Positions 45,224 to 64,000 of a stretch of DNA of 64,000 nucleotides are shown here, piece after piece; positions within the stretch are counted from its first letter, which is position 1; every line of letters begins with the position of its first letter. Below the pieces are notes generated by a model, which saw only the letters and a program-made list of their open reading frames with translations, was not told the origin of the DNA and searched no databases. This DNA comes from an uncultured Eubacteriales bacterium. Its GTDB lineage: Bacteria > Bacillota > Clostridia > Lachnospirales > CAG-274. The position numbers were made by a program, and so were the translations under genes. The stretch lies in contig CATJCJ010000307.1 of assembly GCA_949738935.1 (NCBI GenBank), positions 33,753-97,752 of the forward strand, read 5' to 3'.

Positions 45224-45697
45224 TTACTCAATATCTATATATTTTTTTTCCTCAATTTCCGGTTTTTTATCTTCTGGTTTTGGAATACTTAGTTTTAATA
45301 CCCCGTTTTCATATTTCGCGTGTATTTCTTCTTGTTTTATATCTTCTCCAATATAAAAAGACCTGCTCATACTTCCGGCATAACGTTCTCGGCGTACATA
45401 TTTTCCTGTTTTTTCTTCTTTTTCGTCTTTATCCAAACCTTTGGCGGCACTTATTAATAAGTATCCGTTTTTAAGCTCTATTGAAAGCTCATCTTTTTTA
45501 AAACCGGGTAACTCAATGTCAACCTCATAGTGGTTAGTATGCTCCTGAACATCTGTTTTCATCATATTGGCAGCGTGATGTCCATAAAGTTTTTTTTGAG
45601 CTTTCCTCATTTCTTTGTCGTCAAATGCCGGAAAATCAAAAAAGTCATCAAAAAAATCATTAAATAAACTTTCTCCAAAAATACTTGGTCTCATCAT
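45224..45697 (-). CDS. hsp20: small heat-shock protein, Hsp20/alpha-crystallin family
   Basis: Alpha-crystallin domain 'MKTDVQEHTNHYEVDIELPGFKKDELSIEL...RERYAGSMSRSFYIG...AKYENGVLKLSIPK'. Length is 157 aa. Confidence 0.9.
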   Translation of the reverse strand: MMRPSIFGESLFNDFFDDFFDFPAFDDKEMRKAQKKLYGHHAANMMKTDVQEHTNHYEVDIELPGFKKDELSIELKNGYLLISAAKGLDKDEKEEKTGKYVRRERYAGSMSRSFYIGEDIKQEEIHAKYENGVLKLSIPKPEDKKPEIEEKKYIDIE

Positions 45698-45993
45698 AAT
45701 AATCGCTCCTTTTCCTATAACGATTCCGTTACAGATGAGTATACAGTCAATTATATAAACTCACAAAATCTTAACGCGAACCAATAAAAAAATTTTTTAA
45801 TACATCAAAGTTTTTAAGGTTTTTTATTTATTTTTTATCGGTTTGCCGCAATTTGAAAAATAAGTGGTTCATTGACTATAAAAAACGGGAATCGCCACAA
45901 ATAAAAAATAATTTATTAGTTTGGAACAGGGGATAATTTGGAAGAAGCCTTAACCTTTTCAGGTTTCTTTCTTATTTCCTTTGTTCTAAATAC

Positions 45994-46022
45994 ATTATAA
46001 TACTTTTGTTAGCACTCGTCAA
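45994..46022 (-). promoter_or_regulatory. sigma-A promoter embedded in the CIRCE operator (minus strand)
   Basis: The minus strand reads TCAGCACTCACCCTTGACGAGTGCTAACAAAAGTATTATAATG. That gives TTGACG, a 17-nt spacer, then TATAAT. The -35 hexamer lies inside the CIRCE spacer. Confidence 0.6.
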
Positions 46023-46035
46023 GGGTGAGTGCTGA
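46009..46035. promoter_or_regulatory. CIRCE element (HrcA operator)
   Basis: TTAGCACTC-GTCAAGGGT-GAGTGCTGA compared with the consensus TTAGCACTC-N9-GAGTGCTAA shows one mismatch. Confidence 0.8.
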
Positions 46036-46062
46036 TTTTTTTGTGAATTTTTTATTAACTTT

Positions 46063-46839
46063 TTATGACGGCAGTATTATTCCGTTTTTTGAGGCAAAAA
46101 TTTTTAATTTTTGAATATAAGATTTGTATTGAGTTTTTATTTCTTTTAGTTTTTTTGTATCAGTTATGTTTCCGTAGTTTTTTACTGTTCGTTCATAGGC
46201 GTTTATTTGATTTAAGAGAGTCACAAACTCGGAAGAAGCATCGTTATTTAATTTATTTCTGTTTTTTGTGATTTGATTTATTATATTGTGCAGCTCGCTT
46301 AGCTCACTGACGTTTTCTGATTTAGCTTTTGTTGTTTCTTGATGTATTTCAGACGGGTCGGTTTTTAGGGTTGTTATTTCTATTGTCTTTGTATCGGAAT
46401 CCCATTCAACTTCTGTGTCAAAACATTCTGAAACGGCTCTTAGGGGAATTAAAGTTCTTTTGTTTATTATTTTTGGCTCTTTTTCAAGGGTTATGGTTTT
46501 GCCATTCATTGTCATTATTTTTGAGCCTATTGTTAGTATTATTGTTTTTTGGTCTTTTTTGCAGATTATCCTTTTTGTTTTTTCATCCCATTCTACGGAT
46601 ACTCCCATTGTTTCTAATATTGTTCGAAAAGGTACAAGAGTTATTCCATCCTCAACTATTGGTTCTTGGTCGAAATCTACTTGGATTCCATCTAATTTTA
46701 CTGTTATTGGAATTTTCTTTTCCTCGTGATGATGATGAAATCTTCTTGGAGGTATTGTATTTTCAGCTTTTATGAAAATAGGAGTTGAAGCCGTTATGAA
46801 AGTTAACGTCAATACACTTATTAAAATTGATTTTTTCAT
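46063..46839 (-). CDS. secreted copper-amine-oxidase-N-domain protein with a C-terminal helical module
   Basis: Signal peptide. 'DGITLVPFRTILETMGVSVEWDEKTKRI' and 'KRTLIPLRAVSECFDTEVEWDSDTKTIEI' motifs. Helical tail ending '...YIQKLKIFASKNGIILPS'. Confidence 0.75.
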   Translation of the reverse strand: MKKSILISVLTLTFITASTPIFIKAENTIPPRRFHHHHEEKKIPITVKLDGIQVDFDQEPIVEDGITLVPFRTILETMGVSVEWDEKTKRIICKKDQKTIILTIGSKIMTMNGKTITLEKEPKIINKRTLIPLRAVSECFDTEVEWDSDTKTIEITTLKTDPSEIHQETTKAKSENVSELSELHNIINQITKNRNKLNNDASSEFVTLLNQINAYERTVKNYGNITDTKKLKEIKTQYKSYIQKLKIFASKNGIILPS

Positions 46840-46881
46840 ATTTATAGTTCTCCTTTTTTATGTATGTTGTTTTTTATATTG

Positions 46882-46917
46882 AAAAAGACATTCTATTTAT
46901 AAAGAATGTCTTTTTTT
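46882..46917. terminator. bidirectional hairpin terminator
   Basis: AAAAAGACATTCT-ATTTATAA-AGAATGTCTTTTT, with T/A runs on both sides, just downstream of the 46926-47288 gene. Confidence 0.7.
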
Positions 46918-46925
46918 GTCGATAA

Positions 46926-47288
46926 TTATTTTGCTGCGCTGGTGCTGCTTTCACCGTCGCTAAGAGTTATGTTGTTTGAATCAGCGATTGTTTTAAGTTT
47001 GTTGTAATATTCCTCATATTTCGCTGTAACCTCATCAACTTTTTCCTGTGAGTCGAGTTGTGTTGGGTCTTTTACAATGCCTGTCGCATAGTCTTGAATC
47101 TCTTGAGCAAGAGTAGCAAATTCCTGAGCTGAAGTGGCATCTAAATTCGCGGCGCTTTGAGATACAGTTGTAAGAGCTGATGTAAGTTTCGCGCCCATTT
47201 CCTCGTTAGCTTTTGTATCAATTCCACATCCTACAAATAAAGCGAATGATAATAAGCATACTCCTACCATAGATAAAAATTTCTTCAT
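46926..47288 (-). CDS. small lipoprotein carrying only the shared helical module
   Basis: Lipobox 'LFVGC'. The mature part aligns with the helical tails of neighbouring genes (...AQEFATLAQEIQDY...KYEEYYNKLKTIADSNNITLSD). Confidence 0.65.
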   Translation of the reverse strand: MKKFLSMVGVCLLSFALFVGCGIDTKANEEMGAKLTSALTTVSQSAANLDATSAQEFATLAQEIQDYATGIVKDPTQLDSQEKVDEVTAKYEEYYNKLKTIADSNNITLSDGESSTSAAK

Positions 47289-47586
47289 TTTTTTGTTACC
47301 TCCTAAAAATAAATGTTAAGACAATAATGGTGAATTTAAATTTATTAAATTTGAGGATATTGCCTTAATAAAAACTATAAATTAAAATCTTTAAACATTA
47401 TAACATATAAAAATCGCTTTGTAAATAGTTTTTGAATTTTTGACGAAATGACCATATAATATATTTTATTTATTGTTTTTTTGGCGTTTTTTAAAATTTT
47501 AAACTGTAATTTATGAGTAAAGTAAAAGAAAATAACGACATTCTAAAATGCCGTTATTTCTTTTCGTTCGCAACAACTATGGAATT

Positions 47587-48066
47587 TTATTTAGCTGACT
47601 GAGCGAGATTTTGAAGTCCCTGCATCATATCAGTCATAGCTTTCTGAAGCTCTTCCTGTGAAGTAATAGGAGTTACTGTGATATTGTTTGACTCAGCGAA
47701 AGCTTTGAATTTGTCAGCCCATTCTTTCATTTTGTCAGCGCTTGTGATTGTAGCGGCTTCCTGCTGGAATTGTGTGGCGAGGTTTGTAAACTCAGTTTTT
47801 GCTGAATCACTTAAAGTAGTCGCGCCATTAATTATTGAAACAAGAGGAGCGTATAAATCATAAGCTGCCTGCTCCATTTCAGCCGTGTCTCCGGCGTTTG
47901 AGGAAGCGTTTGCGTCACTGGCACCGCCTGCCGCTGAACTGCTTGCTTCTGTTGTTTCAACAGCAATAGCCTCAGTTGTTGTTGCAGCGTCATCAGAACC
48001 GCCGCAGCCAGCGAACATTGAAAGTGACAAAACAGATATTCCTATAATTGTTAAAAACTTTTTCAT
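47587..48066 (-). CDS. small lipoprotein carrying only the shared helical module
   Basis: Lipobox 'MFAGC'. The tail reads '...KTEFTNLATQFQQEAATI...KEWADKFKAFAESNNITVTP'. Confidence 0.65.
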   Translation of the reverse strand: MKKFLTIIGISVLSLSMFAGCGGSDDAATTTEAIAVETTEASSSAAGGASDANASSNAGDTAEMEQAAYDLYAPLVSIINGATTLSDSAKTEFTNLATQFQQEAATITSADKMKEWADKFKAFAESNNITVTPITSQEELQKAMTDMMQGLQNLAQSAK

Positions 48067-48150
48067 TTAAATTTACCTCCAAAAAATAAATAAAAATATG
48101 TTATGTAGTAGTTTATATGAAAACGCGGAGACATTAATCGGCGTTTTCAT

Positions 48151-48290
48151 ATAGTAATTCCATTTTAAAAGTTACAAAAAAATTATTTTACTTGCACGGG
48201 CTACAAATTGCTTTGCAATTCGCTTACCGCCTAGCAGTGCTTACGCACTCGTAAAATATTTTTTTGTTATATCTCAAGTGGAATTACTAT
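48151..48290. repeat. family C palindromic element (140 bp)
   Basis: Termini ATAGTAATTCCATTTTAAAAG ... TATCTCAAGTGGAATTACTAT, with internal AAAAAAATTATTTTAC / GTAAAATATTTTTTT arms. Confidence 0.8.
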
Positions 48291-48367
48291 AACTACTTCT
48301 TATATATTAGCATACAAATACGATAATGTAAATGATTTTTTTTCAAATATATTGAAATTGTAATATT

Positions 48368-49822
48368 TTAGAAATGAGAGTAATCTTTAATTCCCATTTT
48401 TAAAGCAAGATACTTCCATTCATCAAGTAATTGATTTATGTTATCCACGCAAACTGAAAGCTTGAAATCATCCATTTTTAATATTGTTTCGAATGCCGAT
48501 GAAAAATCAGAGCCGTCTTGATTAAGATTGAAGAGCTTTGAGTAAATATCAAGGGTTTTTATATACAAGGCGTTATATTTTGTTTGAAATTCATTGTATT
48601 TTGATTTTAGTGTTTTTCCGTTTTTGTCAGCGTCAAAGTTTGCCCCTTGTTTTATGAAGCTTTTTAAATACATTGTGAGCTCTAAATCCGCCTTTATAAG
48701 TGGTTTTATATCTATTTTACGTTTTGCTCCAAGTGTTCTTTTTGTGATTCCAAGGTCTATATATATTTTTTGTACATCCTCAAGAATATTTTCAGCGTCA
48801 ATTGTGGCGTCTTCTATCTTTTGGGAATTCGGAAGCAAACTTTCGGAGTCATTTGCAATGTATTCTTCTAAGAATTTTGACATTTTTTTAATATGTCTGT
48901 TATAGTCTTTTTCCGCGAATTCATATTTTGATTTGAATATATATGGATGGTCTTGACTTTCATCTATTGAACGTACTGTATAATTTTCAATATATTTTTC
49001 ATAAAGTTCTATATCGGCAAGATGGTCGGCGAGTTTTGGAATTTTGCACTCAACTTTACTTGTGAAATTTTTTATCTCATCAATTAAAACATCTATGGAG
49101 TCTTCTGATAAATTTAAAAATTTTTTTCCTTTTTTCATTTCGTAAGAGTTTATATTGCTGTAGTTTATATTTATTTTATCAAAAGGTGAATCCATTTCCT
49201 CATTGATGATTTCAGCGAAATTCTCAAACTCATTTTGGTATATCTCAAACTCAGGCTTTAAGATTTTCGCCACTTTCATATAACTGCCTTTATCAAGACA
49301 CATTCCGTCATTTACAGCGTATATATAAAGAGATAGTTTTTTTAATTTTGACGCTAAAATCGCGTCTTCCGGTTCGGCCGGAGAATAAATGGAAACTGTT
49401 CTGAGCTCATTGTCCCAATATACCTCTGAGTTGAACGCTGATGAAAGCGCTCGAAGAGGTATATATGTTGTTCCGTCTATAAGACGGGGCGGAAGCTCAA
49501 GAACAACATCTATATCTTCGGAAGATTTCATTATATAGTTATCTATCTTAAAAGTTAAATATATGTCGTCTTTTGAGCATATTATCGTTTTTGTTTTATT
49601 ATCCCAATCAACAAATATATTCATCGCTGAGGCGATTTCTCTCAATGGAATTAAAGTTACCCCATCTTTTAATATTGGATTTTTTGAGAGATTTAAAATG
49701 CTGTCATCTAACTCAACTATTATTTTGTCGCTTGACTGGGAATAGGCATATCCAAAAGATTGAACATACCAAGAAGTTGTTAATGTTGAAACAATAATAA
49801 AAAGCGCTAAATATTTTCTCAT
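48368..49822 (-). CDS. secreted copper-amine-oxidase-N-domain protein with a long helical C-terminal region
   Basis: Signal peptide. 'DGVTLIPLREIASAMNIFVDWDNKTKTI' and 'GTTYIPLRALSSAFNSEVYWDNELRTVSI' motifs. Start at the ATG at 49822, behind an AAGGTG RBS. Confidence 0.7.
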   Translation of the reverse strand: MRKYLALFIIVSTLTTSWYVQSFGYAYSQSSDKIIVELDDSILNLSKNPILKDGVTLIPLREIASAMNIFVDWDNKTKTIICSKDDIYLTFKIDNYIMKSSEDIDVVLELPPRLIDGTTYIPLRALSSAFNSEVYWDNELRTVSIYSPAEPEDAILASKLKKLSLYIYAVNDGMCLDKGSYMKVAKILKPEFEIYQNEFENFAEIINEEMDSPFDKININYSNINSYEMKKGKKFLNLSEDSIDVLIDEIKNFTSKVECKIPKLADHLADIELYEKYIENYTVRSIDESQDHPYIFKSKYEFAEKDYNRHIKKMSKFLEEYIANDSESLLPNSQKIEDATIDAENILEDVQKIYIDLGITKRTLGAKRKIDIKPLIKADLELTMYLKSFIKQGANFDADKNGKTLKSKYNEFQTKYNALYIKTLDIYSKLFNLNQDGSDFSSAFETILKMDDFKLSVCVDNINQLLDEWKYLALKMGIKDYSHF

Positions 49823-49847
49823 AAAAATCACCTTACTGTTTTTATTA

Positions 49848-53951: not shown

Positions 53952-53988
53952 ATTTGAAAAGATTTTTATGCAAAGATAGTGAATAGAG

Positions 53989-54264
53989 TTATCCACATAA
54001 AATTGAATTTGAAATAGGCTTGAAAAGCGTTATCAACAAAGTTATCAACATATCCACTGTTAATAAGTTATGAATAATTAACAATATTGTTGAAATATTG
54101 TAGAATAAATGTGAAAAAAATGTGAAAAAAATGTTTATAAGTCAGTTTTGGACAAAAAACACAATATATTGTGCGAAACTTAGATTTGTTTGCGGATATA
54201 TAGTATATTTTTTCATAAAATGGCTGTGGATTTAAAAAAGTTATCCACATAAAATTGTGGATAA
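53989..54264. promoter_or_regulatory. DnaA-box cluster flanking an AT-rich tract
   Basis: Perfect TTATCCACA boxes at 53989-53997 and 54241-54249, plus an inverted one (TGTGGATAA) at 54256-54264. One-mismatch TTATCAACA boxes at 54030-54038 and 54042-54050. Weaker boxes at 54051-54057 and 54225-54233. The intervening sequence is very AT-rich and includes AAATGTGAAAAAAATGTGAAAAAAATG. Confidence 0.7.
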
Positions 54265-54280
54265 CGTGGAAAAGTGATAA

Positions 54281-54321
54281 AAAAACGCTGATTTATTTTA
54301 TAATAAATCAGCGTTTTTTTA
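54281..54321. terminator. bidirectional intrinsic terminator
   Basis: AAAAAAACGCTGATTTAT-TTTATA-ATAAATCAGCGTTTTTTT. Confidence 0.75.
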
Positions 54322-54415
54322 TGTACAGAGACGGCGTAATGAAATTTGTAAGCAAGGCTTACCGCCGTTTTGCAAGATGAGCGGGGAGTTAAAAATAGCA
54401 GCCTCCCGCTTGATT

Positions 54416-54631
54416 AAATTAACGTGAGTTCGATGAAATTTTATAATTAATGGAACCTTTTTCTATCGCAAAAAGGTTCCAAACCTCCAAAAATGCTCTT
54501 GAAGCATTAAAAACCTTGAGGTTTCACCTCAAACTCCACAAACTTTTTGAAAAAAGTTTGACAAAAATCTTTGTGCGAAACTACGTTTCGCTGATTTTAC
54601 TGTTATTTCTCATCGAACTCACGTTAATTTA
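54416..54631. repeat. MITE-like element with 21-bp terminal inverted repeats, hosting a family D copy
   Basis: AAATTAACGTGAGTTCGATGA ... TCATCGAACTCACGTTAATTT. The interior contains further hairpins and the family D copy at 54514-54593. Confidence 0.75.
54514..54593. repeat. family D intergenic repeat, copy 4 (inverted orientation)
   Basis: CCTTGAGGTTTCACCTCAAACTCCACAAACTTTTTGAAAAAAGTTTGACAAAAATCTTTGTGCGAAACTACGTTTCGCTG. Confidence 0.85.
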
Positions 54632-54652
54632 TGAACTTTTCCCAAGAACGCA

Positions 54653-54691
54653 AAAAAACCTGAAAATTCCCATTCTAAGGAATTCTCAGGG
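54653..54691 (-). terminator. intrinsic terminator (minus strand) about 310 nt downstream of the 55004-55636 gene
   Basis: The minus strand reads CCTGAGAATTCC-TTAGAATG-GGAATTTTCAGG followed by TTTTTTT. Confidence 0.65.
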
Positions 54692-55003
54692 TGTTCTTAA
54701 ATCATTTTCGTTCATAATTTTACTGATTCATTTGGCAAGCAATGTTTATGATCGCCCATGAACAAATTTCGCTCACTTTTTTCTTTGAAAATCTATTAAT
54801 CATTTAACCTTTATAGACTCATCGTAATTACAGGTTCTTACGGATATTGATACTAATCTCATTTACAGAAACCATTTTCTTTATAACTAAACGGTCAGCG
54901 CTATTACTTCTCGAAAGTGGATAGTATAAAAAATCACAGAATAATTTGAAAAATTTTGAGTAAAAATAATTCTTTCTTTGAATATATTGAAATAACTGTA
55001 TAA

Positions 55004-55636
55004 TTATATAATAAGACGTCCTTTTGATACAAAATAATAATATCCATAAGAAGTAGAAGCGATACGACAAGCTTCAATAACCTTGATTTCTCCCTGATTT
55101 TTCTTGTCTATATAAAAAAAACTTTCCAAATATCGTAAATTATCACTGCTCAAATCTTTAATCGGAAAAATATCAAAATATCCGTCAGACGAATCCACTC
55201 TGTAAAAAAATTTATTTTTATCATCAGCCTTTAAATCTTCCATAACTTTATCTCCGCTGCTATAATTAAGTTTTGTTTTCAAAAACCTTCTGTCAATTTT
55301 TCCAAGATTAAAAAACTTGACATTTTCTTCTGTTTTCTCATTACTTATAACATTTTCCTCTATCTTTATTTTTCCGTCTCTAATCAAATGGGAATTATCT
55401 TTATTTTTTTTTAACTCTCTTATCTCAATTTTTATTTTTAAAAGTTCCTCTTCCCTGTCGCTTATAATTTTTTCTAATTCCTCTATTCTATTAGTAAGTA
55501 AATCAATTTGATTGTTTTTAAACTTTTCAAATTTTTCATCCATTCCTATTATTATTGAACCCACTATTTTTTTTATATCTTCACGAAAATAATCAAATAA
55601 TTCTTTTTTTATCTCTTCCGCGTCCTTTTCGTTCAA
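55004..55636 (-). CDS. coiled-coil protein whose C-terminal domain is shared with the 56070-56942 product
   Basis: TTG start 10 nt after GGAGG. The N-terminal half is heptad-like (LLTNRIEELEKIISDREEELLKIKIEIRELKK). The C-terminal ~90 aa (FFYRVDSSDGYFDIFPIKD...RYLESFFYIDKK...IEACRI...YGYYYFVSKGRLII) aligns with the C-terminus of the upstream membrane protein. Confidence 0.6.
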   Translation of the reverse strand: MNEKDAEEIKKELFDYFREDIKKIVGSIIIGMDEKFEKFKNNQIDLLTNRIEELEKIISDREEELLKIKIEIRELKKNKDNSHLIRDGKIKIEENVISNEKTEENVKFFNLGKIDRRFLKTKLNYSSGDKVMEDLKADDKNKFFYRVDSSDGYFDIFPIKDLSSDNLRYLESFFYIDKKNQGEIKVIEACRIASTSYGYYYFVSKGRLII

Positions 55637-55798
55637 ATCAATTCCGCCTCCTATAATAAGACAATAATAATATTCTCCTCAAATTCTTAAATGTATCAAA
55701 GCGTATCTAAAAAGTTTCTTAAAAGCACCAAAATTATATAAATAACAGATTTTTTTTAATATAAAAATTTGTTAAACTTGAGAAACATCAAAAAATCG

Positions 55799-55840
55799 AG
55801 TAGAAGGCAATTTTCTTGTCCTTCTACTCGTTCAAACTTA
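55799..55840 (-). terminator. intrinsic terminator ending the tubulin-like/actin-like operon
   Basis: The minus strand reads CGAGTAGAAGG-ACAAGAAAATTG-CCTTCTACTCG followed by ATTTTTT, about 230 nt downstream of the 56070 stop. Confidence 0.7.
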
Positions 55841-56069
55841 TCTCAATCAATCTCCTTTAATAAATTTTTATTTCTTCATCGTATAAAATATAAAATTAAA
55901 TCTATTATTTATTTTCTCATTAAAATAATTATAGAGATCAGTATAAAAACTATATAAATAATAAATTTTTAAGTATACACCTATTTTTAGAGAAAATCAA
56001 TAAATAAGTATAATTCAGATATATTTTATAATTTTTTATGGATACTTTAATTTTTAAAATACACCATAG

Positions 56070-56942
56070 TTATTTAAAATAAACCGTACCCAATGAGATA
56101 ATATCATATTTGCCAAGCATACTTTCCTGTAATATACATGGCTCAACACTATTATCCTGTCCTTTTGCGACTTTAAAAAAGCTTACAGATAAATATCTTG
56201 ACCTCATTCTCTCATCAATAATAACATTTTTTGATGGATAAATCTCATATTTATTGTTTCCACAGTTTAAAGCATAAAATATACCGTTTGGCTTCTTTTC
56301 AAGTTGGTTTCCATATTCGCTAAAACTACATTCCGTCCCATTAAGCTCTTTAGGAAAATCTCCATGATTATTTAAATATAAATTATACTTTTCTTTAATA
56401 GTAAAATATTTAGCTGACTGTAAAGTGTCTAAATCTTTTCTATCAGCTTTTCCCGATTTTAAGTTTTCCTGTTCTTGTCTAAACGTGTTGTTTGACAAAT
56501 TAGATACATCTCTATCCATTCCATAAAACTTATCGTCGCTATCCTTTTTTAACTTGTCTAAATTATTTTCAATATAATCAATTTTATCTTTCAGCGTATC
56601 ATAATCTTTCTTAAGAGAATTAAAACTCACTCTCAGCTGTTTAAAATAATAACGATAATTATCACCAATTCTTCTGAGCATAATAAAAATAATCACAAGA
56701 AAAACAATTACAGCCGCTAACATTACACACAATACTGAAAAACTTATAATACCACTAACAGAATCAAATGAGAAAATAGGAGAAATAGCCGAGGATGTTG
56801 TGGAACTTTCAATTGCGACGGAACTTTCAATAAAGCTTTCAACCTCAGCGAAAGCTTTTTGAGTAAACATAGAGGATATTAAGCCTAATATGAAAATCAT
56901 TATCAAAATATTTTTTAAAACATTTTTTATATAAATACTCAT
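56070..56942 (-). CDS. bitopic membrane protein: signal/TM, second TM, coiled coil and the shared C-terminal domain
   Basis: ATG at 56942, 9 nt after GGAGG and 3 nt after the upstream TGA. It has N-terminal hydrophobic segment ILIMIFILGLISSMF..AFA and a second TM, FSVLCVMLAAVIVFLVIIFIML. The coiled coil reads LKKDYDTLKDKIDYIENNLDKLKKD. The C-terminal domain is IFYALNCGNNKYEIYPSKN...RYLSVSFFKVAKG...VEPCIL...GKYDIISLGTVYFK. Confidence 0.65.
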   Translation of the reverse strand: MSIYIKNVLKNILIMIFILGLISSMFTQKAFAEVESFIESSVAIESSTTSSAISPIFSFDSVSGIISFSVLCVMLAAVIVFLVIIFIMLRRIGDNYRYYFKQLRVSFNSLKKDYDTLKDKIDYIENNLDKLKKDSDDKFYGMDRDVSNLSNNTFRQEQENLKSGKADRKDLDTLQSAKYFTIKEKYNLYLNNHGDFPKELNGTECSFSEYGNQLEKKPNGIFYALNCGNNKYEIYPSKNVIIDERMRSRYLSVSFFKVAKGQDNSVEPCILQESMLGKYDIISLGTVYFK

Positions 56943-56944
56943 AA

Positions 56945-59900
56945 TCAAATACCTCCATTATTTCGTTTACCTCGTAAAATCTCTAAAATAGCCTGTATTC
57001 CAATAATAAATGAAGGATCAACTTTATGAGCGTTAGCGTTTAAGTTTACAATAACTTTCATTCCCTCATAAATATCAAGCCAATCATCAGCGTTTAAATC
57101 AATTATCATTTTCTTATCACCGTTAAATATTTTTCTATTAACAATATCGACAAACTTTTTAAGATTTTCAAGTTTAGGTGATATTTCAAAGGTATATTTT
57201 AAATTTTGCTCACCGCTGTCAGCGCTGAAATAATCAATATATTTTGAGTTTTCACTCAATTTAAGGTCATAATCAGGACCTATATCAAAGTCCTTGTTTT
57301 CATATCGGACAAAGACTTTTTCCCCGTTATACATTTTTTCCGTATTATCAAACTCAATATTGTCAATATCAATACGGCTTAATTTCAACAATCCTTTCGA
57401 CGCTTCCGTTTTAAGATTGTTTTCATTAAGCGGCTCAATATGAATATTTATTCCCAGTTCATCAGATAATACCTTTCGCATATTTGTAATATATCTTTCA
57501 CCAACCCAATTATACATCTTTGAGCCGTTTCCAGCAAAATACAAATTAATATCTCTTGAACCGCTCACACTATCCTTAACAAGCTCAAGTGATTTGACAG
57601 AATAATACATTATGCCAAAAAATCCAAGAACAAGCTCTTGTTTAAACGGAATAAGCTCGTCGTTATCTCTGCCGTCAACAAAAGATTTTATTTTATCGCC
57701 AAATTTAAATATAGCCGGTTCAATATCTGTTCTAAATCTTCTCATAATTCTATCTCTTCCGTCAAAGTTTCCGTTTATAGCCTTAATAGCCTCGTCTATA
57801 GCTCTTCCATATGTCGCTCTGTTAAGCTCGCTGATACTTTCCTGTAAAACTGTATAGCTTTCCTCGTTAGTATCGCTCATGATAAGCTCGGCAATAGAAG
57901 CTAGGAATATAAGCCTCGAAGCTATATTAACAGATACCTGTATAATATTTTTCGGAGTATTACCCTCAATAACTTTCCAAAATGAAATATCAGTTGAACC
58001 TCCACCAATATCTATACAGCCATAAAGCATACACCTCGATGATAACGCCTGCTCCTGAAAAAACTTAGCGGAAACAATACTTTCCGAACAATACTGGCTG
58101 CCGTTTGAGTTAAATATAAAAGCGTTTCTGTCGCAAGATTCCCTAAGAGAATCTATTACCGATTTTGTAATATTTTTAAACTCATCAAACGATTCCTGCC
58201 TTAAAGAAGTAGGATAAGAAAATTTCCATGTAAATTTACAAGCCTGCTTTTGATAAATAAGGGCGTATACAATATTTTTTATAATTTGGCTCAAATAAGC
58301 TTTTAGCGCTCGTTTGTTGTCAGCCGTAGTTCCCCATTTCATTTCAGTTTCAATACAATCGTTGGCGCTTAGCTCAATCTCATAATCAAAAATAACATTA
58401 CCTATAGAAAACAGATTCTTAGCGTCTGCTGTTTTTTTACTTGAGTTATTCTGATAAATACTCGGATACGCCTTTTGGTTATAATAACGATAAGGCAAAA
58501 AATACGCTATATTATCGTCTATGTAATTGGGATTATTATAAATAACCTTGAGGCCATTGTCATCCATTTTTCCAACGCAATCAACCGGCTCAAGAATTCC
58601 TCCCCTTTTTTCCCTAAATTCATAAAGTTTACCAAATTCAATAAATTCTGAATTTTCCCCAAAATTGTCGGTTGTGTAAAAAGCTACCGTTGAGGTTGTA
58701 CCAAAATCTATGGCTACATTATAAACAACTTCTGAATTTGGGTTTACAATAGTCTCATTAGGCTTTGGAAGTATAAAAGCTCCAAGCTCTACCCCGTTCG
58801 TTCCGTCAAGAGATACTTTTTTAAATATAATATGTGTCGGTACATCCTCACATTTATAAACCAATCGTTCTCTTTTATCTTTGCTGTACGCTAAATCCAA
58901 ATCAAAATTATTATCAGCTATTATATCCTCAACCATGATTTCCGCGATATATTTAAAATCCACACTCTGATTTGACGGCATAGCCTCATAAACATAATAC
59001 TCATTCCATAAGTTAGCACCTAAAATATTATTCTGCGCTTTAATTTTTTGATACGGCCAAATAAAAACAGAAGGTATATCAACGTCAAAAATATCAATTA
59101 TACTCTCACCTGAATACTCATGTTTAATATGTAGCTGTTTATATGTTCCTTTGCCGTTTACCTCTTTATAAATGGGAAACACAACATGAAATCTGTAAGT
59201 TCCGTCAACAATTTTCTCAAGTTTGATTTTTATTTTATCTTTATTTTCATCTGAGAAATTACCGCTGAGAATTTCATCAATTCTCACGTCATAATTAATG
59301 TTATATGGCTTAATACGCTCAAAAATATTATTTTTTATAGGCCATATAACATATTTCTCATATCCGCTGTCCTCGAAAGAATCGGTAAACTCTGAAACTT
59401 TCGTACCCGTAAAACAATTAATTAAACATAAATCATCAAGGAAAATATCATCCTCACTAAAAAATCCCGTATTAACATCCATTTTTATATTATTTCTGCT
59501 TAAAAACTCTTTAAGCTCCGTTGATAATTCCTCAACAACATATAAAGGCTTGTCACTTCTTCCCGTATAAACCTGAATTAAAGGTTTAACGGCGTCAACG
59601 TTTATATTTGGATAAATATACTCAAAAACCTCGCTTATTTTTGATACATTTCCATCAAAGTTAAATAAAAAATCAATGAACCTATTTTCATCAAGGCCCC
59701 GCGCTTTTAACAGTTCTTCTTCTCCCGCCTCAGAAATAGCTTTATCAAGGTCCTCAATAAAATCATTAATAAAACCACAGGCTAAAGTTATTAAGTTATT
59801 TTCCTCCAGAATATTTGTTCTTAAAATTCTTTCTATACATTCAAGCCACTTTCTCATGTATAAATATTGAATACTGTTCTTCGTTATAAAAGGAATAGGG

Positions 59901-60550
59901 TCAATAAAATCAATCCTTTTATTAATGGTTCCCATAATTTCCTTTTCACAGAGTATTTTAACAATATTTGAGCTATCATAAGAATACATGGGACATACAA
60001 GACCTGAATTTGATAAAACCCCAATATTTTGTGTCTCGCCCATATTCGCGCACTCTATAAAAACAAATTCGTCCCAGCAAGAACTATCGCCAAACAATTG
60101 GCTGTTTGGCTTTAAATAGATCAAATTTCTATAAAACTTATTAACATTATTCTCTGAATATTTAGCGCTTAAATCTACTTTATGAAAATTTATCTCCAAA
60201 TCAATAAAATCCTTTAAAGCGATAATAGTGAGTAGCCCTCTCCATTGATTAACAGCGTCCTCATGTAACTGCCCAAAATCATCGGAAACCATAATAGTGT
60301 CAAATGAAATAATAGAAGCCCATGGAGAAGGTACTGAAATTTCACTCCTGTTTTTTATTATCGTCTTAGCGCCGTTGTCAGACGTCTCAAGGTCGCTCGC
60401 TATATTTCTCAAAGTTGATACCGCGTTATAAGAACCGCCTCCGGCCTCTCCTAAGGAAGAGCCGTCTGTCACCGGATTAACGGCGAGATTTGGATTTTTC
60501 CCGTTTCTTAAAGCGTTACTTGTTATATAAGTAAATTTTTTCCCCGCCAT
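56945..60550 (-). CDS. giant (~1200 aa) protein: unknown N-terminal ~600 aa plus a C-terminal actin/Hsp70-superfamily ATPase-like domain
   Basis: Phosphate-1-like 'VAIDFGTTSTVAFY' (DFGTTSTV is encoded at 58685-58708). Phosphate-2-like 'CIDIGGGSTDISFW' (57983-58012). Adenosine-motif-like 'NLYFAGNGSKMYNW'. The ATG at 60550 overlaps the upstream stop (TAATG); the ORF-track start at 60574 is an alternative. Confidence 0.8.
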   Translation of the reverse strand: MAGKKFTYITSNALRNGKNPNLAVNPVTDGSSLGEAGGGSYNAVSTLRNIASDLETSDNGAKTIIKNRSEISVPSPWASIISFDTIMVSDDFGQLHEDAVNQWRGLLTIIALKDFIDLEINFHKVDLSAKYSENNVNKFYRNLIYLKPNSQLFGDSSCWDEFVFIECANMGETQNIGVLSNSGLVCPMYSYDSSNIVKILCEKEIMGTINKRIDFIDPIPFITKNSIQYLYMRKWLECIERILRTNILEENNLITLACGFINDFIEDLDKAISEAGEEELLKARGLDENRFIDFLFNFDGNVSKISEVFEYIYPNINVDAVKPLIQVYTGRSDKPLYVVEELSTELKEFLSRNNIKMDVNTGFFSEDDIFLDDLCLINCFTGTKVSEFTDSFEDSGYEKYVIWPIKNNIFERIKPYNINYDVRIDEILSGNFSDENKDKIKIKLEKIVDGTYRFHVVFPIYKEVNGKGTYKQLHIKHEYSGESIIDIFDVDIPSVFIWPYQKIKAQNNILGANLWNEYYVYEAMPSNQSVDFKYIAEIMVEDIIADNNFDLDLAYSKDKRERLVYKCEDVPTHIIFKKVSLDGTNGVELGAFILPKPNETIVNPNSEVVYNVAIDFGTTSTVAFYTTDNFGENSEFIEFGKLYEFREKRGGILEPVDCVGKMDDNGLKVIYNNPNYIDDNIAYFLPYRYYNQKAYPSIYQNNSSKKTADAKNLFSIGNVIFDYEIELSANDCIETEMKWGTTADNKRALKAYLSQIIKNIVYALIYQKQACKFTWKFSYPTSLRQESFDEFKNITKSVIDSLRESCDRNAFIFNSNGSQYCSESIVSAKFFQEQALSSRCMLYGCIDIGGGSTDISFWKVIEGNTPKNIIQVSVNIASRLIFLASIAELIMSDTNEESYTVLQESISELNRATYGRAIDEAIKAINGNFDGRDRIMRRFRTDIEPAIFKFGDKIKSFVDGRDNDELIPFKQELVLGFFGIMYYSVKSLELVKDSVSGSRDINLYFAGNGSKMYNWVGERYITNMRKVLSDELGINIHIEPLNENNLKTEASKGLLKLSRIDIDNIEFDNTEKMYNGEKVFVRYENKDFDIGPDYDLKLSENSKYIDYFSADSGEQNLKYTFEISPKLENLKKFVDIVNRKIFNGDKKMIIDLNADDWLDIYEGMKVIVNLNANAHKVDPSFIIGIQAILEILRGKRNNGGI

Positions 60551-62091
60551 TAATTCTCGACCTCTCTTCCGCATAATTCCATAACATCACGCATAAAAAC
60601 AGTAAACGTAGTCATACTGTCGGTTATGGGTTTAACCGTATTGGTAGCTAATTCCTCTATAATTCTCTGACCTGTATAACGCTTATTTTCGGATTCAGGA
60701 CTCTCATTAAAAACAACCGTGGCCATGTTTTCAAGTTCTCTAAATTTATATCCAGTAAAACCGCATGATACAGTCTCCGGATTATATAAATTTCCATACA
60801 TATCGCTGACGTTAAGCCATTTTACCTTACTGTTTATTTTGTAATCAAATATTCCCGAATCATCACGAATATTTCCTGAATCATTTGGTAGTATAAGCTG
60901 GCTCCAGATCCAAGACAAATATTCCTCACAGTAATCTTTTAAAATCACATTAAAATTATGGCTTTTCAAAAAATTTCTTCCATAAACAGACTCATAATTT
61001 TTAAGCCAGCCAATATTTTTTTTTCTGTTTTCAATCATATCGCTAAGAAGTTTTGTGTACAGACTTGAGAATAAAAAAAACGTTGACATTTTTCTCACTA
61101 TATTAGCGTTTTTAACAACATTATTTAAAGTTTCAGGAATTATATACTCATCAGCCTTTTGTTCAATAACATAAAATTTAGTCCTAAAAGTATCGTTTTT
61201 AGGAGCGACTAAAAAATCAAATAATGTGGCGGCGGCGTAAGTTTCTATATAATGAGGCTTATTTTTCTGCTCTCCCCCGCCCTCAGAATAAGGAACATTC
61301 ATAAAATTCTCCTCATTCTCACCAATAAAATACATAGTCCTGAATATATCGTCAAAACCCTGAGACTCATAAAATGATAAAGCCATTTTCACTTTTGAGT
61401 TAAATGTTCTCCAATTTATATTTAAAGAGGTTTTCTCTCCTTGTTTTCCGACAGGCCTAAAATATGGCATAACCAAAACCGCCCCAATAGGAACATCCTC
61501 TTTAATATTGTTCTTTATAATTCTGGCTATCGTAGGTATTCCCGAAGCTCCCGTCCCGCCGAAAACCGAGCCTACTATAAATATTTTATCTCCATCTCCG
61601 ATATGCTCAAAATATCTTTCCCAAACTTCTGAGAATTTGTGATTCTCACCTAAAATATTTAACGAAGTGAAATAAGAACCTATAGAAGTATGACCATAAA
61701 ATCCCTCGTTGAGTTTTTTGCTGAGTTCCTCTTTTGTATAAAGAAACTCAAGAACATTCTTAGCGTCGTCGTTTAAATTAAAATCCCCGATATGGCCTCT
61801 CATATCGTTATCATTTGAGTCCAAAGGCGACCAGTATAGCCCCCCGTCTTCCTTATAACAGCTCACAAGAGGCAGATCAGTAAGCTTTTGAAGAGCTTTG
61901 TACTTTGAGTATAAACTTCTGAGTCCGTTCATATCCCCGTTATTTCCATCAGAATCTATACACATAACCTTATAATTGTCAAATGATTTAATTCTCTCGT
62001 CATCAAACCCTCCCGAAGCCAAAAGGTGAAACAACGCTCTCATAACTCTTGTTCCGCTTCCTCCTATAGGAAGTATATAACAAGTACTCAT
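60550..62091 (-). CDS. divergent tubulin/FtsZ-superfamily GTPase-like protein (513 aa)
   Basis: T1-loop-like N-terminus 'CYILPIGGSGTRVMRAL'. G-box/T4-like 'KIFIVGSVFGGTGASGIPTIARII' (GGTGASG is encoded at 61540-61560), compared with the tubulin signature GGGTGSG and FtsZ GGGTGTG. A GGAGGGG RBS is present. Confidence 0.75.
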   Translation of the reverse strand: MSTCYILPIGGSGTRVMRALFHLLASGGFDDERIKSFDNYKVMCIDSDGNNGDMNGLRSLYSKYKALQKLTDLPLVSCYKEDGGLYWSPLDSNDNDMRGHIGDFNLNDDAKNVLEFLYTKEELSKKLNEGFYGHTSIGSYFTSLNILGENHKFSEVWERYFEHIGDGDKIFIVGSVFGGTGASGIPTIARIIKNNIKEDVPIGAVLVMPYFRPVGKQGEKTSLNINWRTFNSKVKMALSFYESQGFDDIFRTMYFIGENEENFMNVPYSEGGGEQKNKPHYIETYAAATLFDFLVAPKNDTFRTKFYVIEQKADEYIIPETLNNVVKNANIVRKMSTFFLFSSLYTKLLSDMIENRKKNIGWLKNYESVYGRNFLKSHNFNVILKDYCEEYLSWIWSQLILPNDSGNIRDDSGIFDYKINSKVKWLNVSDMYGNLYNPETVSCGFTGYKFRELENMATVVFNESPESENKRYTGQRIIEELATNTVKPITDSMTTFTVFMRDVMELCGREVEN

Positions 62092-62169
62092 AAAAACCCC
62101 TCCGCATATTTTTATAATATTTACCTTACACTTTAATACGCCGTATCCAAACTTTCAAAAATACAAAAG

Positions 62170-62634
62170 TCAGCGGAAAGGAACAAAGTCCGAACGCCAA
62201 ATTTTCGAGCAAAAAACAGTAGAGAGAATAAACTCCGCTATTTGTTCAACTATAAATAAAACAAAAGAAATAGTCGAACATGAAGTGTCCTCCGGATTAA
62301 CTCTCAAAAATAAAATTGATAAAACGGCGCCTATAATAATCGCTAAAAATAAGTATATAATCCACGCTACGCTTGAACGAAAAAAAGCTCCGCAGTACAT
62401 AGAAAATATCATTATAATAAAATTAAAAACAAACGAGGCAATAGTCCCCCAAAAAAACCAATTAAAAAAAGAATTTCCCCAATCCTGAGGGGTATATAAT
62501 AAATCTTCAGGGTAAGACGCTCCCGAAAAATACAAAGAAATAAGAAACCCTATAAGCAAAAAACATATAGCCGTAATAAGAGAAACAACCAGTCCCGTCA
62601 ATGAACTCGACCAAGGATTTTTTCCTTTACCCAT
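62170..62634 (-). CDS. small integral membrane protein (4 predicted TM)
   Basis: Four hydrophobic helices (LVVSLITAICFLLIGFLISLYF; FFWGTIASFVFNFIIMIFSMY; VAWIIYLFLAIIIGAVLSILFL; ISFVLFIVEQIAEFILSTVF). A GGAGG RBS is present, with an 18-nt gap to the upstream gene. Confidence 0.65.
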   Translation of the reverse strand: MGKGKNPWSSSLTGLVVSLITAICFLLIGFLISLYFSGASYPEDLLYTPQDWGNSFFNWFFWGTIASFVFNFIIMIFSMYCGAFFRSSVAWIIYLFLAIIIGAVLSILFLRVNPEDTSCSTISFVLFIVEQIAEFILSTVFCSKIWRSDFVPFR

Positions 62635-62652
62635 AACAATTCCTCCTAAAAG

Positions 62653-64000
62653 TTATTCCGCGTCACTCGCTTTTCCCACATAAACTGAAAAAGTGTTTTG
62701 AGTAACGTTTCTATTAATTTGATAGCCGTAAATAGAATTAAACAACGTATCTAAATTTGAGATTTTATTCGTTCGGGACCATTCTTTAACCCACTTAGGC
62801 ATATTCTCTTTCGACATAAATTGTTTTACGTTAATATCAAGTTTAAAGAAATTTCCCTCCGATTTAGGAAATTCCGCGGCGTTGTCCATCATAAAATTAA
62901 AAAGCATAGAGTTGTTCTCATCGTCAACTCTCCATTTGCCTTGGTTTTCTCCACCCTCGGCAATCTGTACCTTAATAAAGTCCTCGGCGTTCGCTCCATA
63001 TTCCACCAGCTTGCCGTCTTTCGGAATATACATTTTTGTCTCAAGCTCACAATCTAATGAGCTTAATTTAACCTCGTCAATTATATTAAAAGGCACGTCA
63101 AGCTTAAATTTTCCGGCAAGCGTTTTATCGCCGTCTAAAACAAGCGACTTCATAGCGATATAGCTTATATCGTTTACGGTAATATTTTTCGCTTCCTCTT
63201 TCTTGTTTTCATCGGCATCACTTTTAGGTGGCATAACCTGAACATATCTGTTTGTTACAGACGCTCCGCCTACATCAGCGAAATTAACAGTACCCTCTAT
63301 GTATTTATATAAATCTTTTGAGTAATAATTATCATTTATCTCAGAAAAACTTCCCTCAGTCTCATTCGTGATAGTAAATGACGGAATTTGCTTAACAGTC
63401 CCGTCTTGTGTTTTTTCCTCTTTATATTCGTATAAATAATAAGTTCCATTCTCAATAGGTTTGATATCTTTATAATTAATCCCCATTATGCCGTTATCAT
63501 TAGCGAAAATCTGATAATTAATATTTCTGACTATATCTAACTGAAGTCCACCATCCGCCTGACCTCCCTCAGAATTTTCATAAGCCGCGACATTAGGATT
63601 CTGCTTAAAATTAGATATAAATTCCGACGTTTTTTTATTAGAGCCGACAACTACTATAAAAAAAGGCCTTACCTCGGTATCGACCCCAATAATGGCTACC
63701 GCTTGATTTTTAGCTAAAACACCGGTAATAGCTGAAACCATAGAAGTGTAATCGCCAAGCTGCGTTGTAAAATCCGTGACAATAACACTAAACTCATTTT
63801 CCTTTGTATTTTCTAAAACATCTTTAACAATACTATTCGATTTTCCAGAATAACTTTTCTCATTAATTATTTTTTTTACAAAAAAATCTCCGTCAAGCTT
63901 TTCTACTTCATCCTTCACCGAATGTATCTCAAAATTTAATGAATCGTTTGTACTAAGTTCATTCGCCGTACTATACGCGGCATATACAATATTTTTAAAA
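62653..64000 (-). CDS. large uncharacterised protein, 5'-truncated by the window edge (at least 449 aa visible)
   Basis: The minus-strand frame stays open from the GTG listed at 63918 up to position 63999 (...FKNIVYAAYSTANELSTNDSLNFEIHSVKDEVEK...), so the real start lies outside the window. The visible N-proximal part (SGKSNSIVKDVLENTKENEFSVIVTDFTTQLGDYTSM...VAIIGVD) is weakly vWA-like. The rest looks beta-rich. Confidence 0.7.
   Translation of the reverse strand, partial: FKNIVYAAYSTANELSTNDSLNFEIHSVKDEVEKLDGDFFVKKIINEKSYSGKSNSIVKDVLENTKENEFSVIVTDFTTQLGDYTSMVSAITGVLAKNQAVAIIGVDTEVRPFFIVVVGSNKKTSEFISNFKQNPNVAAYENSEGGQADGGLQLDIVRNINYQIFANDNGIMGINYKDIKPIENGTYYLYEYKEEKTQDGTVKQIPSFTITNETEGSFSEINDNYYSKDLYKYIEGTVNFADVGGASVTNRYVQVMPPKSDADENKKEEAKNITVNDISYIAMKSLVLDGDKTLAGKFKLDVPFNIIDEVKLSSLDCELETKMYIPKDGKLVEYGANAEDFIKVQIAEGGENQGKWRVDDENNSMLFNFMMDNAAEFPKSEGNFFKLDINVKQFMSKENMPKWVKEWSRTNKISNLDTLFNSIYGYQINRNVTQNTFSVYVGKASDAE

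Follow-up and report, generated by a model that had tools for sequence, protein, structure and literature searches.

A widespread bacterial operon pairing a short tubulin-like GTPase with a giant predicted ATPase of the actin/Hsp70 fold

Tubulin-like and actin-like NTPases are the cells' two main filament-forming protein families, and to our knowledge FtsZ and FtsA in division are the sole well-known bacterial pair in which one of each kind works with the other. What, then, is the role of an operon that sets the gene of a tubulin-like GTPase directly against that of a giant ATPase of the actin/Hsp70 fold, among membrane and coiled-coil proteins? The locus in question lies in DNA of an uncultured Eubacteriales bacterium (CAG-274; assembly GCA_949738935.1, contig CATJCJ010000307.1, positions 33,753-97,752, forward strand). 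We call this whole stretch of 64,000 nucleotides (nt) the window, and the locus occupies its end, at 55004-64000. We found that the two predicted NTPases are neighbours in genomes of more than ten bacterial phyla and are fused in some, which is strong evidence that they form one functional unit. The operon probably senses or reshapes the cell envelope. As its biological role we tentatively favour conflict or defence over housekeeping membrane remodelling.

A preliminary description of the letters had listed six co-directional genes on the minus strand, including a g1 cut by the window edge, a g2 with four transmembrane (TM) segments, a g3 of 513 amino acids (aa) and a g4 of about 1200 aa, and calling of open reading frames (ORFs) confirmed all of this. 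MIDAS below stands for metal-ion-dependent adhesion site and CTD for C-terminal domain. The features are as follows.

62653..64000, minus strand, running past the window edge: g1, the last 448 aa of a lipoprotein of 513 aa that has a vWA/MIDAS-like motif and is beta-rich in its C-terminal part
62170..62634, minus strand: g2, 154 aa, a membrane protein with four TM segments
60550..62091, minus strand: g3, a predicted 513-aa tubulin/FtsZ-superfamily GTPase of the Tubulin_2 type, in a short form without a coiled coil
56945..60550, minus strand: g4, a predicted 1201-aa giant ATPase of the ASKHA (actin/Hsp70) fold
56070..56942, minus strand: g5, 290 aa, a membrane-anchored coiled-coil protein with a CTD of about 85 aa
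55790..55830, minus strand: a hairpin and T-run resembling an intrinsic terminator, between g5 and g6 (sequence read directly)
55004..55636, minus strand: g6, a 210-aa soluble coiled-coil protein with a CTD as in g5, a GGAGG ribosome-binding site and a TTG start

The open frame of g4 runs from 56945 to 60574, and the true start is the ATG at 60550, which gives 1201 aa, the same as the database protein P0001. Searches of Pfam, NCBIfam and PADLOC linked none of the six proteins to a named system, the Tubulin_2 domain of g3 being the one exception.

We looked at the fold of g3 through its homologues. The protein itself scores 27.9 bits with Pfam Tubulin_2 (cut-off 27), and with Tubulin it falls just short of passing at 24.3 bits. 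Among 53 homologues with 20-79% identity, 47 match Tubulin_2 (best 9e-12) and 23 match Tubulin (PF00091). The glycine motifs of T1 (IGGSGTR) and of T4, the G-box (GGTGASG), are invariant in all 53, the unchanging residues being G10, G11, G13, S175 and G178-G179-T180-G181-A182. There is no Pfam match to FtsZ_C or Tubulin_C in g3 or its 53 homologues, and the last ~230 residues of the family show low conservation. All of these proteins are 460-550 aa long, and g3 has no TM segment. The best sequence matches in PDB were CetZ and FtsZ, which were weak and sub-threshold with a shallow profile. We also aligned the family with a single E. coli FtsZ sequence using hhalign, which covered the T4 region only at a probability of 2.4%; this was uninformative and was not used. 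Judged from its profile matches and motifs, the prediction that g3 is a tubulin/FtsZ-superfamily GTPase of the Tubulin_2 branch holds.

The larger partner, g4, carries the phosphate-1 (DFGTTST), phosphate-2 (DIGGGSTD) and adenosine (AGNGS) motifs in the right order. Across 42 diverse homologues the invariant elements are DFG..T (DFGTT), K-W, E, DxGG..D (DIGGGxxD) and GN(G). While g4 itself has no match in Pfam, NCBIfam or PADLOC, its 42 homologues do match Pfam families, with MreB_Mbl in nine and FtsA, Ppx-GppA, EutA and Hydantoinase_A in others, and all of these are ASKHA families. The family profile matches MreB in PDB at E 3.4e-6, spanning both phosphate motifs. An earlier model from 6 sequences was discarded (predicted local distance difference test, pLDDT, 45.6) and the AlphaFold2 model was rebuilt with an alignment of 42 sequences, giving a pLDDT of 74 and a pTM of 0.67. 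Foldseek placed the nucleotide-binding domain of DnaK/Hsp70 on top for this model (E 1.7e-8), with MreB at 2.5e-7, at probability 1.0 and a target-normalised TM-score of at most 0.57; viral Hsp70 homologues were matched too. In model numbering, g4 has an alpha/beta domain at ~78-290, a beta-rich domain at ~370-605, the ASKHA domain at ~610-1065 including a helical insert of ~120 aa, and a helical C-terminal domain. Structure and sequence comparison gave no match for the ~600 N-terminal residues or for the C-terminal helical domain, and TM prediction returned a single hydrophobic stretch, in the core. Motifs and model agree, and the call of a putative two-lobed, RNase-H-like ASKHA ATPase domain in g4 holds. 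Pfam HSP70 and SrfB (PF07520) matched neither g4 nor the 42 homologues, no Hsp70 substrate-binding domain was found in g4, and no DnaJ or GrpE genes were found in the locus. The preliminary description had proposed both folds, and both stand: that of g3 on the Tubulin_2 match and the invariant T1/T4 motifs, and that of g4 on its invariant motifs, the MreB profile match and the DnaK and MreB matches in Foldseek.

How common is the pair? Word-indexed searches gave only 5-6 relatives of g4, which was a false rarity. The exhaustive profile search that we used instead recovered 2681 representative clusters, 1000 of them matching end-to-end at E <= 1e-30. For g3, a pattern scan with one genome per species found relatives in at least 514 species representatives among ~185,000. 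Loci with a g3 relative occur in Clostridia, Selenomonadaceae, Syntrophomonadaceae, Poribacteria, Acidobacteriota, Bacteroidota, Nitrospirota, Chlorobiota and Ignavibacteria, Aminicenantes, Gemmatimonadota and Spirochaetota, and in many Cyanobacteria, including Trichodesmium erythraeum IMS101, Microcystis and Nostocales. In total the module spans more than 10 bacterial phyla.

To describe the synteny, we called ORFs in 80 species-representative loci and ran iterated hidden Markov model (HMM) searches, and the denominators here are the loci with enough sequence. The g4 gene was directly downstream of g3 or fused to it in 65 of 75 loci, and g2 was directly upstream of g3 in 67 of 79. A g1 homologue lay within 3.5 kb upstream of g3 in 50 of 70 (on the opposite strand in many cyanobacteria), and at least one CTD protein followed g4 in 42 of 52. 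The conserved order is a lipoprotein with a vWA/MIDAS-like motif, the 4-TM protein, the tubulin-like GTPase, the ASKHA giant and then the CTD coiled-coil proteins. We consider this order to be far beyond chance because it recurs in dozens of unrelated genomes.

There are also five loci where g3 and g4 are fused as a single ORF of ~1650 aa, with full-length g3 (~1e-97 to 1e-107) followed by full-length g4 (~1e-136). The hosts are three Spirochaetaceae metagenome-assembled genomes (MAGs), one Termitinemataceae MAG and one Syntrophomonadaceae MAG, and the fusions lie at L011 4147-9087, L012 2442-7424, L019 2938-7935, L029 10001-14989 and L057 10001-13243. Because the two genes are fused in some genomes and adjacent in most, we have strong evidence from gene arrangement that g3 and g4 would act as one functional unit. 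This answers the call in the preliminary description for a test of neighbourhood conservation, as the genes are co-conserved across phyla. The 4-TM gene was not detected beside the fusion in at least L011, L019 and L029.

Not all relatives keep the full set. In ten Selenomonadaceae/Selenomonadales loci (L037, L054, L058, L059, L064, L066, L068, L070, L074 and L083) there is no ASKHA giant beside the tubulin-like gene. The tubulin-like gene itself is kept at ~462-530 aa, most of the ten keep the 4-TM gene, and six have LytR-CpsA-Psr and YrbL-like genes upstream. From their gene content these loci look like a reduced or rewired variant. In Westiellopsis prolifica (L056 11494-14766), g3 and g4 are separated by an insertion of ~3 kb, and an N-terminal extension brings the g4 ORF to 1380 aa. 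In Trichodesmium erythraeum IMS101 (L067 11703-14978), g4 is split into ORFs of 706 aa and 382 aa, which may reflect a pseudogene or a sequencing frameshift. A soil relative (L002 14771-19715, GCA_023259375.1) has an added 908-aa protein that matches Pfam HSP70 at 1.4e-13, with SrfB just under the cut-off, followed by a gene for a trypsin-like serine protease; these extra genes are possible effector or regulatory add-ons.

The number of CTD proteins also varies, from one to five tandem paralogues, and cyanobacteria are the richest. Seven cyanobacterial loci (L034, L041, L042, L046, L060, L077 and L082) have, at positions of about 15-21 kb, 4-5 or more tandem CTD coiled-coil genes, several of whose products carry two CTDs, one near the N-terminus and one at the C-terminus, and g1 in these loci is upstream on the opposite strand. 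The majority of copies are chromosomal. The same four genes, each annotated 'unknown protein', are on plasmid 1 of Synechococcus sp. NIES-970, and three Picosynechococcus plasmids gave weaker g4 matches. One MAG has two loci (L015 and L027). Phage records had no match to the system.

The membrane and coiled-coil partners surround this pair. The window holds part of g1, and the full gene was recovered from the near-identical metagenomic contigs L004-L006 (L004 7898-9439; 513 aa), which supplied the extension past position 64000 that the preliminary description had asked for. That description had seen that g1 was truncated and had missed both its lipoprotein nature and its vWA/MIDAS-like motif. 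The full gene in L004 has the lipobox FITGC. Upstream of g1 in L004-L006 there is a ~300-nt gap and then genes for an unrelated rhodanese-domain protein and a GH3 glycosidase, and because of this gap and these unrelated genes we take g1 to be the first gene of the operon. The window and L004 copies of g1 differ in two residues (…GDKTLAG… versus …GDEMLAG…). Across 23 members of the g1 family we found the pattern DxSxSM...T...(I/V)VTDL, in which the Asp is invariant; vWA domains bear this pattern as their MIDAS signature. The g2 protein has four hydrophobic/TM segments, in which we did not find a conserved acidic residue. In g5 a signal-like segment and a single TM segment are combined with a coiled coil and the CTD, and g6 is a soluble coiled-coil protein without a TM segment. 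Their common C-terminal domain, which had already been pointed out, is ~85 aa long and aligns with 29% identity (blastp, E 6e-5). For the CTD family we replaced the iterative HMM of the g6 coiled coil, which is at risk of compositional bias, with a CTD-only HMM. The family has both membrane-anchored and soluble members, and the two are mixed in most loci, as they are in the window.

Some relatives have two further genes. In the anti-phage defence of Zorya, ZorAB is a proton-driven 5:2 motor that senses envelope perturbation and signals via its tail to cytosolic effectors (PMC11946911, PMC11890865). A ZorA/ZorB-like gene pair stands at the end of the operon in 14 of the 41 relatives with enough downstream sequence, in Bacteroidota, Poribacteria, Nitrospirota, Acidobacteriota and Bacillota. 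A MotA/ExbB-family protein of 536-836 aa with a long coiled-coil tail is the product of the first gene, and PADLOC ZorA models match it at E 1e-6 to 1e-11. The second encodes a ~235-aa MotB/OmpA protein, matched over its full length by ZorB models at E 1e-16 to 1e-20. Pfam MotA_ExbB and OmpA likewise match these proteins. Outside the stator pairs, one protein of a relative was scanned with PADLOC (L032 14975-16633) and had no match; the g1-g4 homologues of the relatives were not PADLOC-scanned.

How might these parts work together? We tentatively picture an envelope-triggered, NTP-gated assembly or conflict/defence machine, a reading that we hold at somewhat less than an even chance. g1 would present, on the membrane's outer face, a vWA-like domain that binds its ligand in a metal-dependent way, and g2 and the TM-anchored CTD protein g5 would couple it to the cytoplasm. 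A change in the envelope, such as damage or contact with an invader, would be passed on to the g3-g4 complex, where GTP-dependent self-assembly of g3 could act as a thresholded switch. ATP turnover by g4 would tether, remodel or disassemble the g3 assembly, as FtsA does for FtsZ, and the coiled-coil CTD proteins would be tethers or adaptors. In extended versions, the ZorAB-like motor might provide sensing or energy at the peptidoglycan, and the window copy would be a minimal version with no stator pair. This would be the logic of Zorya with cytoskeletal NTPases replacing the nucleases, and with the response to envelope perturbation as its role. A bolder form of the idea, which we think doubtful, is a fourth, cytoskeletal Zorya-like class, in which the tubulin-fold and actin/Hsp70-fold proteins would co-assemble when triggered via the vWA lipoprotein and/or the stator, and a membrane polymer would contain or abort infection.

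Does the evidence point to defence? The patchy spread across phyla, the plasmid copies, the two loci in one MAG and a GC content under that of the flanks all suit it, as do the Zorya-like stator in relatives, the diversified tandem paralogues and the HSP70/SrfB-like and trypsin-like protease genes of L002. By analogy, kindred tubulin-vWA-coiled-coil sets have been predicted to be conflict systems (PMC7159879). There is also a good deal that weighs against a defence machine of this kind. We recognised no toxic effector (nuclease, pore, protease or NADase) in the window locus, none of its six proteins has a PADLOC match, and ZorAB-like genes are missing from the window copy by ORFs, Pfam and PADLOC. 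The neighbours in the window are housekeeping genes (rpoB, rpoC, hsp20, proS and a methyl-accepting chemotaxis protein, MCP, gene). Among the genes flanking related loci, ~5 of 140 are credible defence genes (restriction-modification and MADS components), a count without a matched control that shows no clear signal of a defence island, and the other defence matches in the flanks are mostly housekeeping look-alikes such as IscS as DndA/SspA, GlgB and kinases. For g3, we could not identify a clear T7 catalytic loop in the 53-sequence alignment; in the region expected for T7 (NxDxx[D/E]), conservation is limited to Q275, N277 and a Glu that is frequent at +6, and polymerisation-coupled GTPase activity is putative. 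For g1, the vWA call comes from the motif and sub-threshold PDB matches (the TRAP vWA domain, E 0.1-0.3), with no Pfam match, VWA included. The window copy moreover reads DTNESL, with Asn at the first MIDAS serine, so metal-dependent ligand binding may be altered or lost in its clade. Finally, a strict order of large structural genes suits a housekeeping machine equally well.

A housekeeping or adaptive cytoskeleton is what we would put next, at a somewhat lower likelihood: a membrane scaffold with a lipoprotein, and in relatives a stator, that shapes, repairs or moves the envelope, with vesicle formation, upkeep of the envelope, and adhesion or gliding as examples. The gene order that is strictly conserved across phyla argues for it, and so do the FtsZ-FtsA-like pairing, with g4 relatives matching Pfam MreB and FtsA, the absence of an effector domain and the housekeeping neighbourhood of the window locus, the few defence genes in the flanks of related loci and the tandem coiled-coil paralogues of filamentous cyanobacteria. 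Stators of the MotAB/TolQR type power many envelope processes that are not immune, and the same role was predicted for the sister family FtsZl1 (PMC2875224). However, at least 514 among ~185,000 species representatives is a patchy distribution and not an essential-like one, plasmid-borne copies exist, the gene set is variable (g4 is absent in Selenomonadaceae and the ZorAB-like pair is optional), and the stator pair bears the long tail that is a hallmark of Zorya. It is much less probable that the operon is a dedicated chaperone, export or assembly system in which g3 and g4 fold, insert or assemble g1 or the coiled-coil proteins into a surface adhesin or fibre. Hsp70 nucleotide-binding domains do top the Foldseek ranking for g4, L002 has its second HSP70/SrfB-like gene with a trypsin-like protease, and the lipoprotein with the vWA-like motif could be an adhesin, its PDB matches being to the TRAP adhesin. 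Yet a substrate-binding domain of the Hsp70 kind, a J-domain and GrpE are all absent, neither g4 nor the 42 sampled homologues match Pfam HSP70, the locus has no secretion-system component, and the tubulin-like partner and the fusion are left unexplained. The least credible candidate is a TubZ-like or ParM-like DNA partition apparatus of a plasmid or degraded mobile element. Plasmid-segregation motors are known in both NTPase superfamilies and a few copies sit on large cyanobacterial plasmids, but an extracytoplasmic lipoprotein and membrane proteins are a poor fit, there is no small DNA-binding adaptor or centromere-like repeat, and phage matches are none. Copies are also mostly chromosomal, with rpoBC and proS as neighbours in the window, and we saw no integrase or transposase next to the window locus or its L004 counterpart, the flanks not being searched systematically. 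Of the three roles that the preliminary description had suggested, membrane remodelling and conflict or defence are still live, and we regard partition as very unlikely.

The layout of the locus is that of tightly coupled genes, much as first described. The gap between g1 and g2 is 18 nt with AGGAGG, that between g2 and g3 is 78 nt with GGAGGGG, and the stop of g3 overlaps the start of g4 in TAATG. These three junctions agree with the preliminary description; its 3-nt spacer between g4 and g5 is in fact 2 nt (TGA, TT, ATG). The terminator that it had placed between g5 and g6 is there at 55790-55830 and has an 11-bp stem (CGAGTAGAAGG/CCTTCTACTCG) and a 12-nt loop, followed by ATTTTTT. Our automatic scan allows loops of up to 8 nt, so this hairpin escaped it. 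The g6 gene beyond it is also present in the near-identical contigs L004-L006. An impression of AT-richness was right when we computed windowed GC, but it is modest: the locus has a GC fraction of 0.323, the remainder of the window one of 0.367 and the lowest 9-kb segment elsewhere one of 0.339, and the difference is owed mostly to g5 (0.285) and g6 (0.262). The suggestion of an accessory island or degraded mobile element was not supported, with rpoB, rpoC, hsp20, proS, the MCP gene and a rhodanese gene as the neighbours of the locus. The interval between rpoC and proS, at 45224-49831, holds an Hsp20 gene along with two genes whose products have copper-amine-oxidase N-terminal-like domains; these genes are unrelated to the operon. 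Such domains are typical of clostridial cell-wall-associated proteins.

The left flank does contain the DnaA boxes that had been noted there, and perfect inverted repeats as well. Three boxes lie within 275 nt at 53982-54257, two of them perfect (TTATCCACA) and one near-perfect (TTATCAACA). At ~54000 the GC skew of the plus strand turns from positive to negative and gene orientation switches, with the cumulative skew peaking at 52-54 kb. This polarity looks like converging replication or mere converging transcription, and not like a classical origin. The stretch 54240-54700 is non-coding, AT-rich (GC 0.27) and dense in hairpins, including a perfect palindromic 21-nt hairpin at 54277-54322. A 22-nt inverted repeat, likewise perfect, has its arms at 54415-54436 and 54610-54631, separated by 173 nt. 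We counted 15 terminator-like sites in 54000-64000 against 4.2 expected, the majority of them within 54240-54700. This stretch may be what was earlier called 'MITE-like' (miniature inverted-repeat transposable element). No tandem repeats were seen in the left flank examined.

The locus matters to us as a second, widespread pairing of the two cytomotive NTPase folds, and one that is experimentally unstudied. The evidence for joint action is unusually direct, with adjacency in more than ten phyla and natural fusions, and the pair is linked with an extracytoplasmic lipoprotein, to which many genomes add a Zorya-type proton motor. As an immune system, the operon would introduce cytoskeletal assembly as a new principle for effectors and add a further Zorya-like class; as a housekeeping machine, it would be a new bacterial cytoskeleton. 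If g3 and g4 are a co-assembling unit, the fused proteins would be the first natural fusion of tubulin and actin folds. The system also offers testable material for the question, dating from 2010, of what Tubulin_2/FtsZl1 proteins do, and there are cultivable hosts in Picosynechococcus strains (with the operon on plasmids), Nostocales and Trichodesmium.

Is this a known system under another name? Several candidates were tried and rejected, and the exclusions of ftsA-ftsZ, TubZ/TubR and dnaK-grpE-dnaJ made in the preliminary description stand. TubZ/TubR/tubC was rejected on the neighbours of g3, which are a lipoprotein, a 4-TM protein and an ASKHA giant, with no small DNA-binding adaptor. For dnaK-grpE-dnaJ there was no Pfam HSP70 match in g4 or its 42 homologues and no DnaJ or GrpE in the locus, and a phage origin was rejected on phage records without a match. 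SrfB proteins of srfABC are likewise large bacterial proteins (~1000 aa) with an embedded ASKHA domain, and L002 has its SrfB/HSP70-like paralogue downstream; we rejected SrfABC on the lack of Pfam SrfB matches in g4 and the 42 homologues and of srfA or srfC partners. FtsZ-FtsA is similar in having a tubulin-superfamily GTPase gene beside an ASKHA ATPase gene and in acting at the membrane, and some g4 homologues match Pfam FtsA and MreB. In contrast to ftsA-ftsZ, which was rejected on these grounds, the present locus has no FtsZ_C, no dcw neighbours, very different protein sizes and a reversed gene order, and it differs further in the extra N- and C-terminal domains of g4 and in its accessory distribution.

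Zorya resembles the relatives in two ways: the operon of 14 of 41 includes a MotB/OmpA protein and a MotA/ExbB protein whose coiled-coil tail is long, both matched by the Zor models, and an envelope sensor would be linked to cytosolic partners. The window copy differs in having no ZorAB, and the cytosolic partners here are a tubulin-like GTPase and an ASKHA ATPase where those of Zorya are the ZorC-G nuclease/helicase proteins. Three Zorya subtypes are recognised, none with tubulin-like or Hsp70-like partners (PMC11946911, PMC11890865). We rejected a bona fide Zorya for the window copy, which has no ZorAB and no ZorC/D, ZorE or ZorF/G matches, the PADLOC scan of its six proteins having included the Zor effector models.

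The conflict systems of DO-GTPase and GAP1-N2 (Kaur, Burroughs, Iyer and Aravind 2020, PMC7159879) have several sub-themes, among them one of tubulin homologues with vWA and coiled-coil proteins and a separate one of HSP70/GrpE. They resemble our operon in uniting tubulin homologues with coiled coils, TM components and extracellular vWA proteins, for which g1 with its putative vWA-like domain would be the counterpart, and other versions have HSP70-like ATPases; they are predicted to be NTP-dependent and membrane-proximal and are over-represented in multicellular or social bacteria (PMC7159879). They are defined, however, by the TRAFAC DO-GTPase, GAP1 and FNIII/GASH, none of which we found with Pfam, NCBIfam and a Walker A check (the Walker A motif is in none of the six window proteins), so membership was rejected. 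The tubulin and HSP70 themes never overlap in those systems (PMC7159879), whereas here both NTPases are partnered.

The closest precedent is FtsZl1, the basis of Pfam Tubulin_2 (Makarova and Koonin 2010, PMC2875224). These proteins are ~1000 aa with a fused coiled coil, and their operons contain vWA proteins, a divergent GTPase, kinases and OmpA/MotB-family proteins, from which a membrane-remodelling machine was predicted (PMC2875224). The neighbourhood table of that paper has cyanobacterial operons of vWA, FtsZl1, a 'B7' membrane protein and COG1360 (MotB/OmpA), and its supplement has an alphaproteobacterial FtsZl1 operon with a terminal 1626-aa HSP70-like protein (M. magneticum amb2957-2961; PMC2875224). 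In common with these, our operon has a GTPase of the Tubulin_2 branch, an upstream gene with a putative vWA-like domain, membrane proteins and coiled coils, and an OmpA/MotB-family gene in relatives only (14 of 41), not in the window. In FtsZl1 the coiled coil and a helical C-domain are fused to the GTPase at ~1000 aa, while here the GTPase has ~500 aa and the coiled coils are found in proteins of their own, g5 and g6. The FtsZl1 family was rejected for g3 on this length and architecture, the g3 homologues being 460-550 aa. PMC2875224 does not include a ~1100-aa ASKHA partner, a 4-TM protein or a CTD family in its description. Its Trichodesmium and Microcystis entries are not the loci or proteins found here, and because they are other genes, we conclude that the short-form family and its ASKHA partner are not covered there. 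Both FtsZl1 and the present system are computational predictions, neither experimentally tested. The earlier claim of an undescribed system is thus upheld in that PADLOC, NCBIfam and Pfam name no match, and tempered by the partial precedents in PMC2875224 and PMC7159879. Full-text literature searches, whose coverage is short of all journals, returned no paper describing the present architecture. The combination of a short tubulin with an ASKHA giant is in neither PMC2875224 nor PMC7159879, and we see the operon as an architectural variant of the FtsZl1/Tubulin_2-vWA-OmpA theme.

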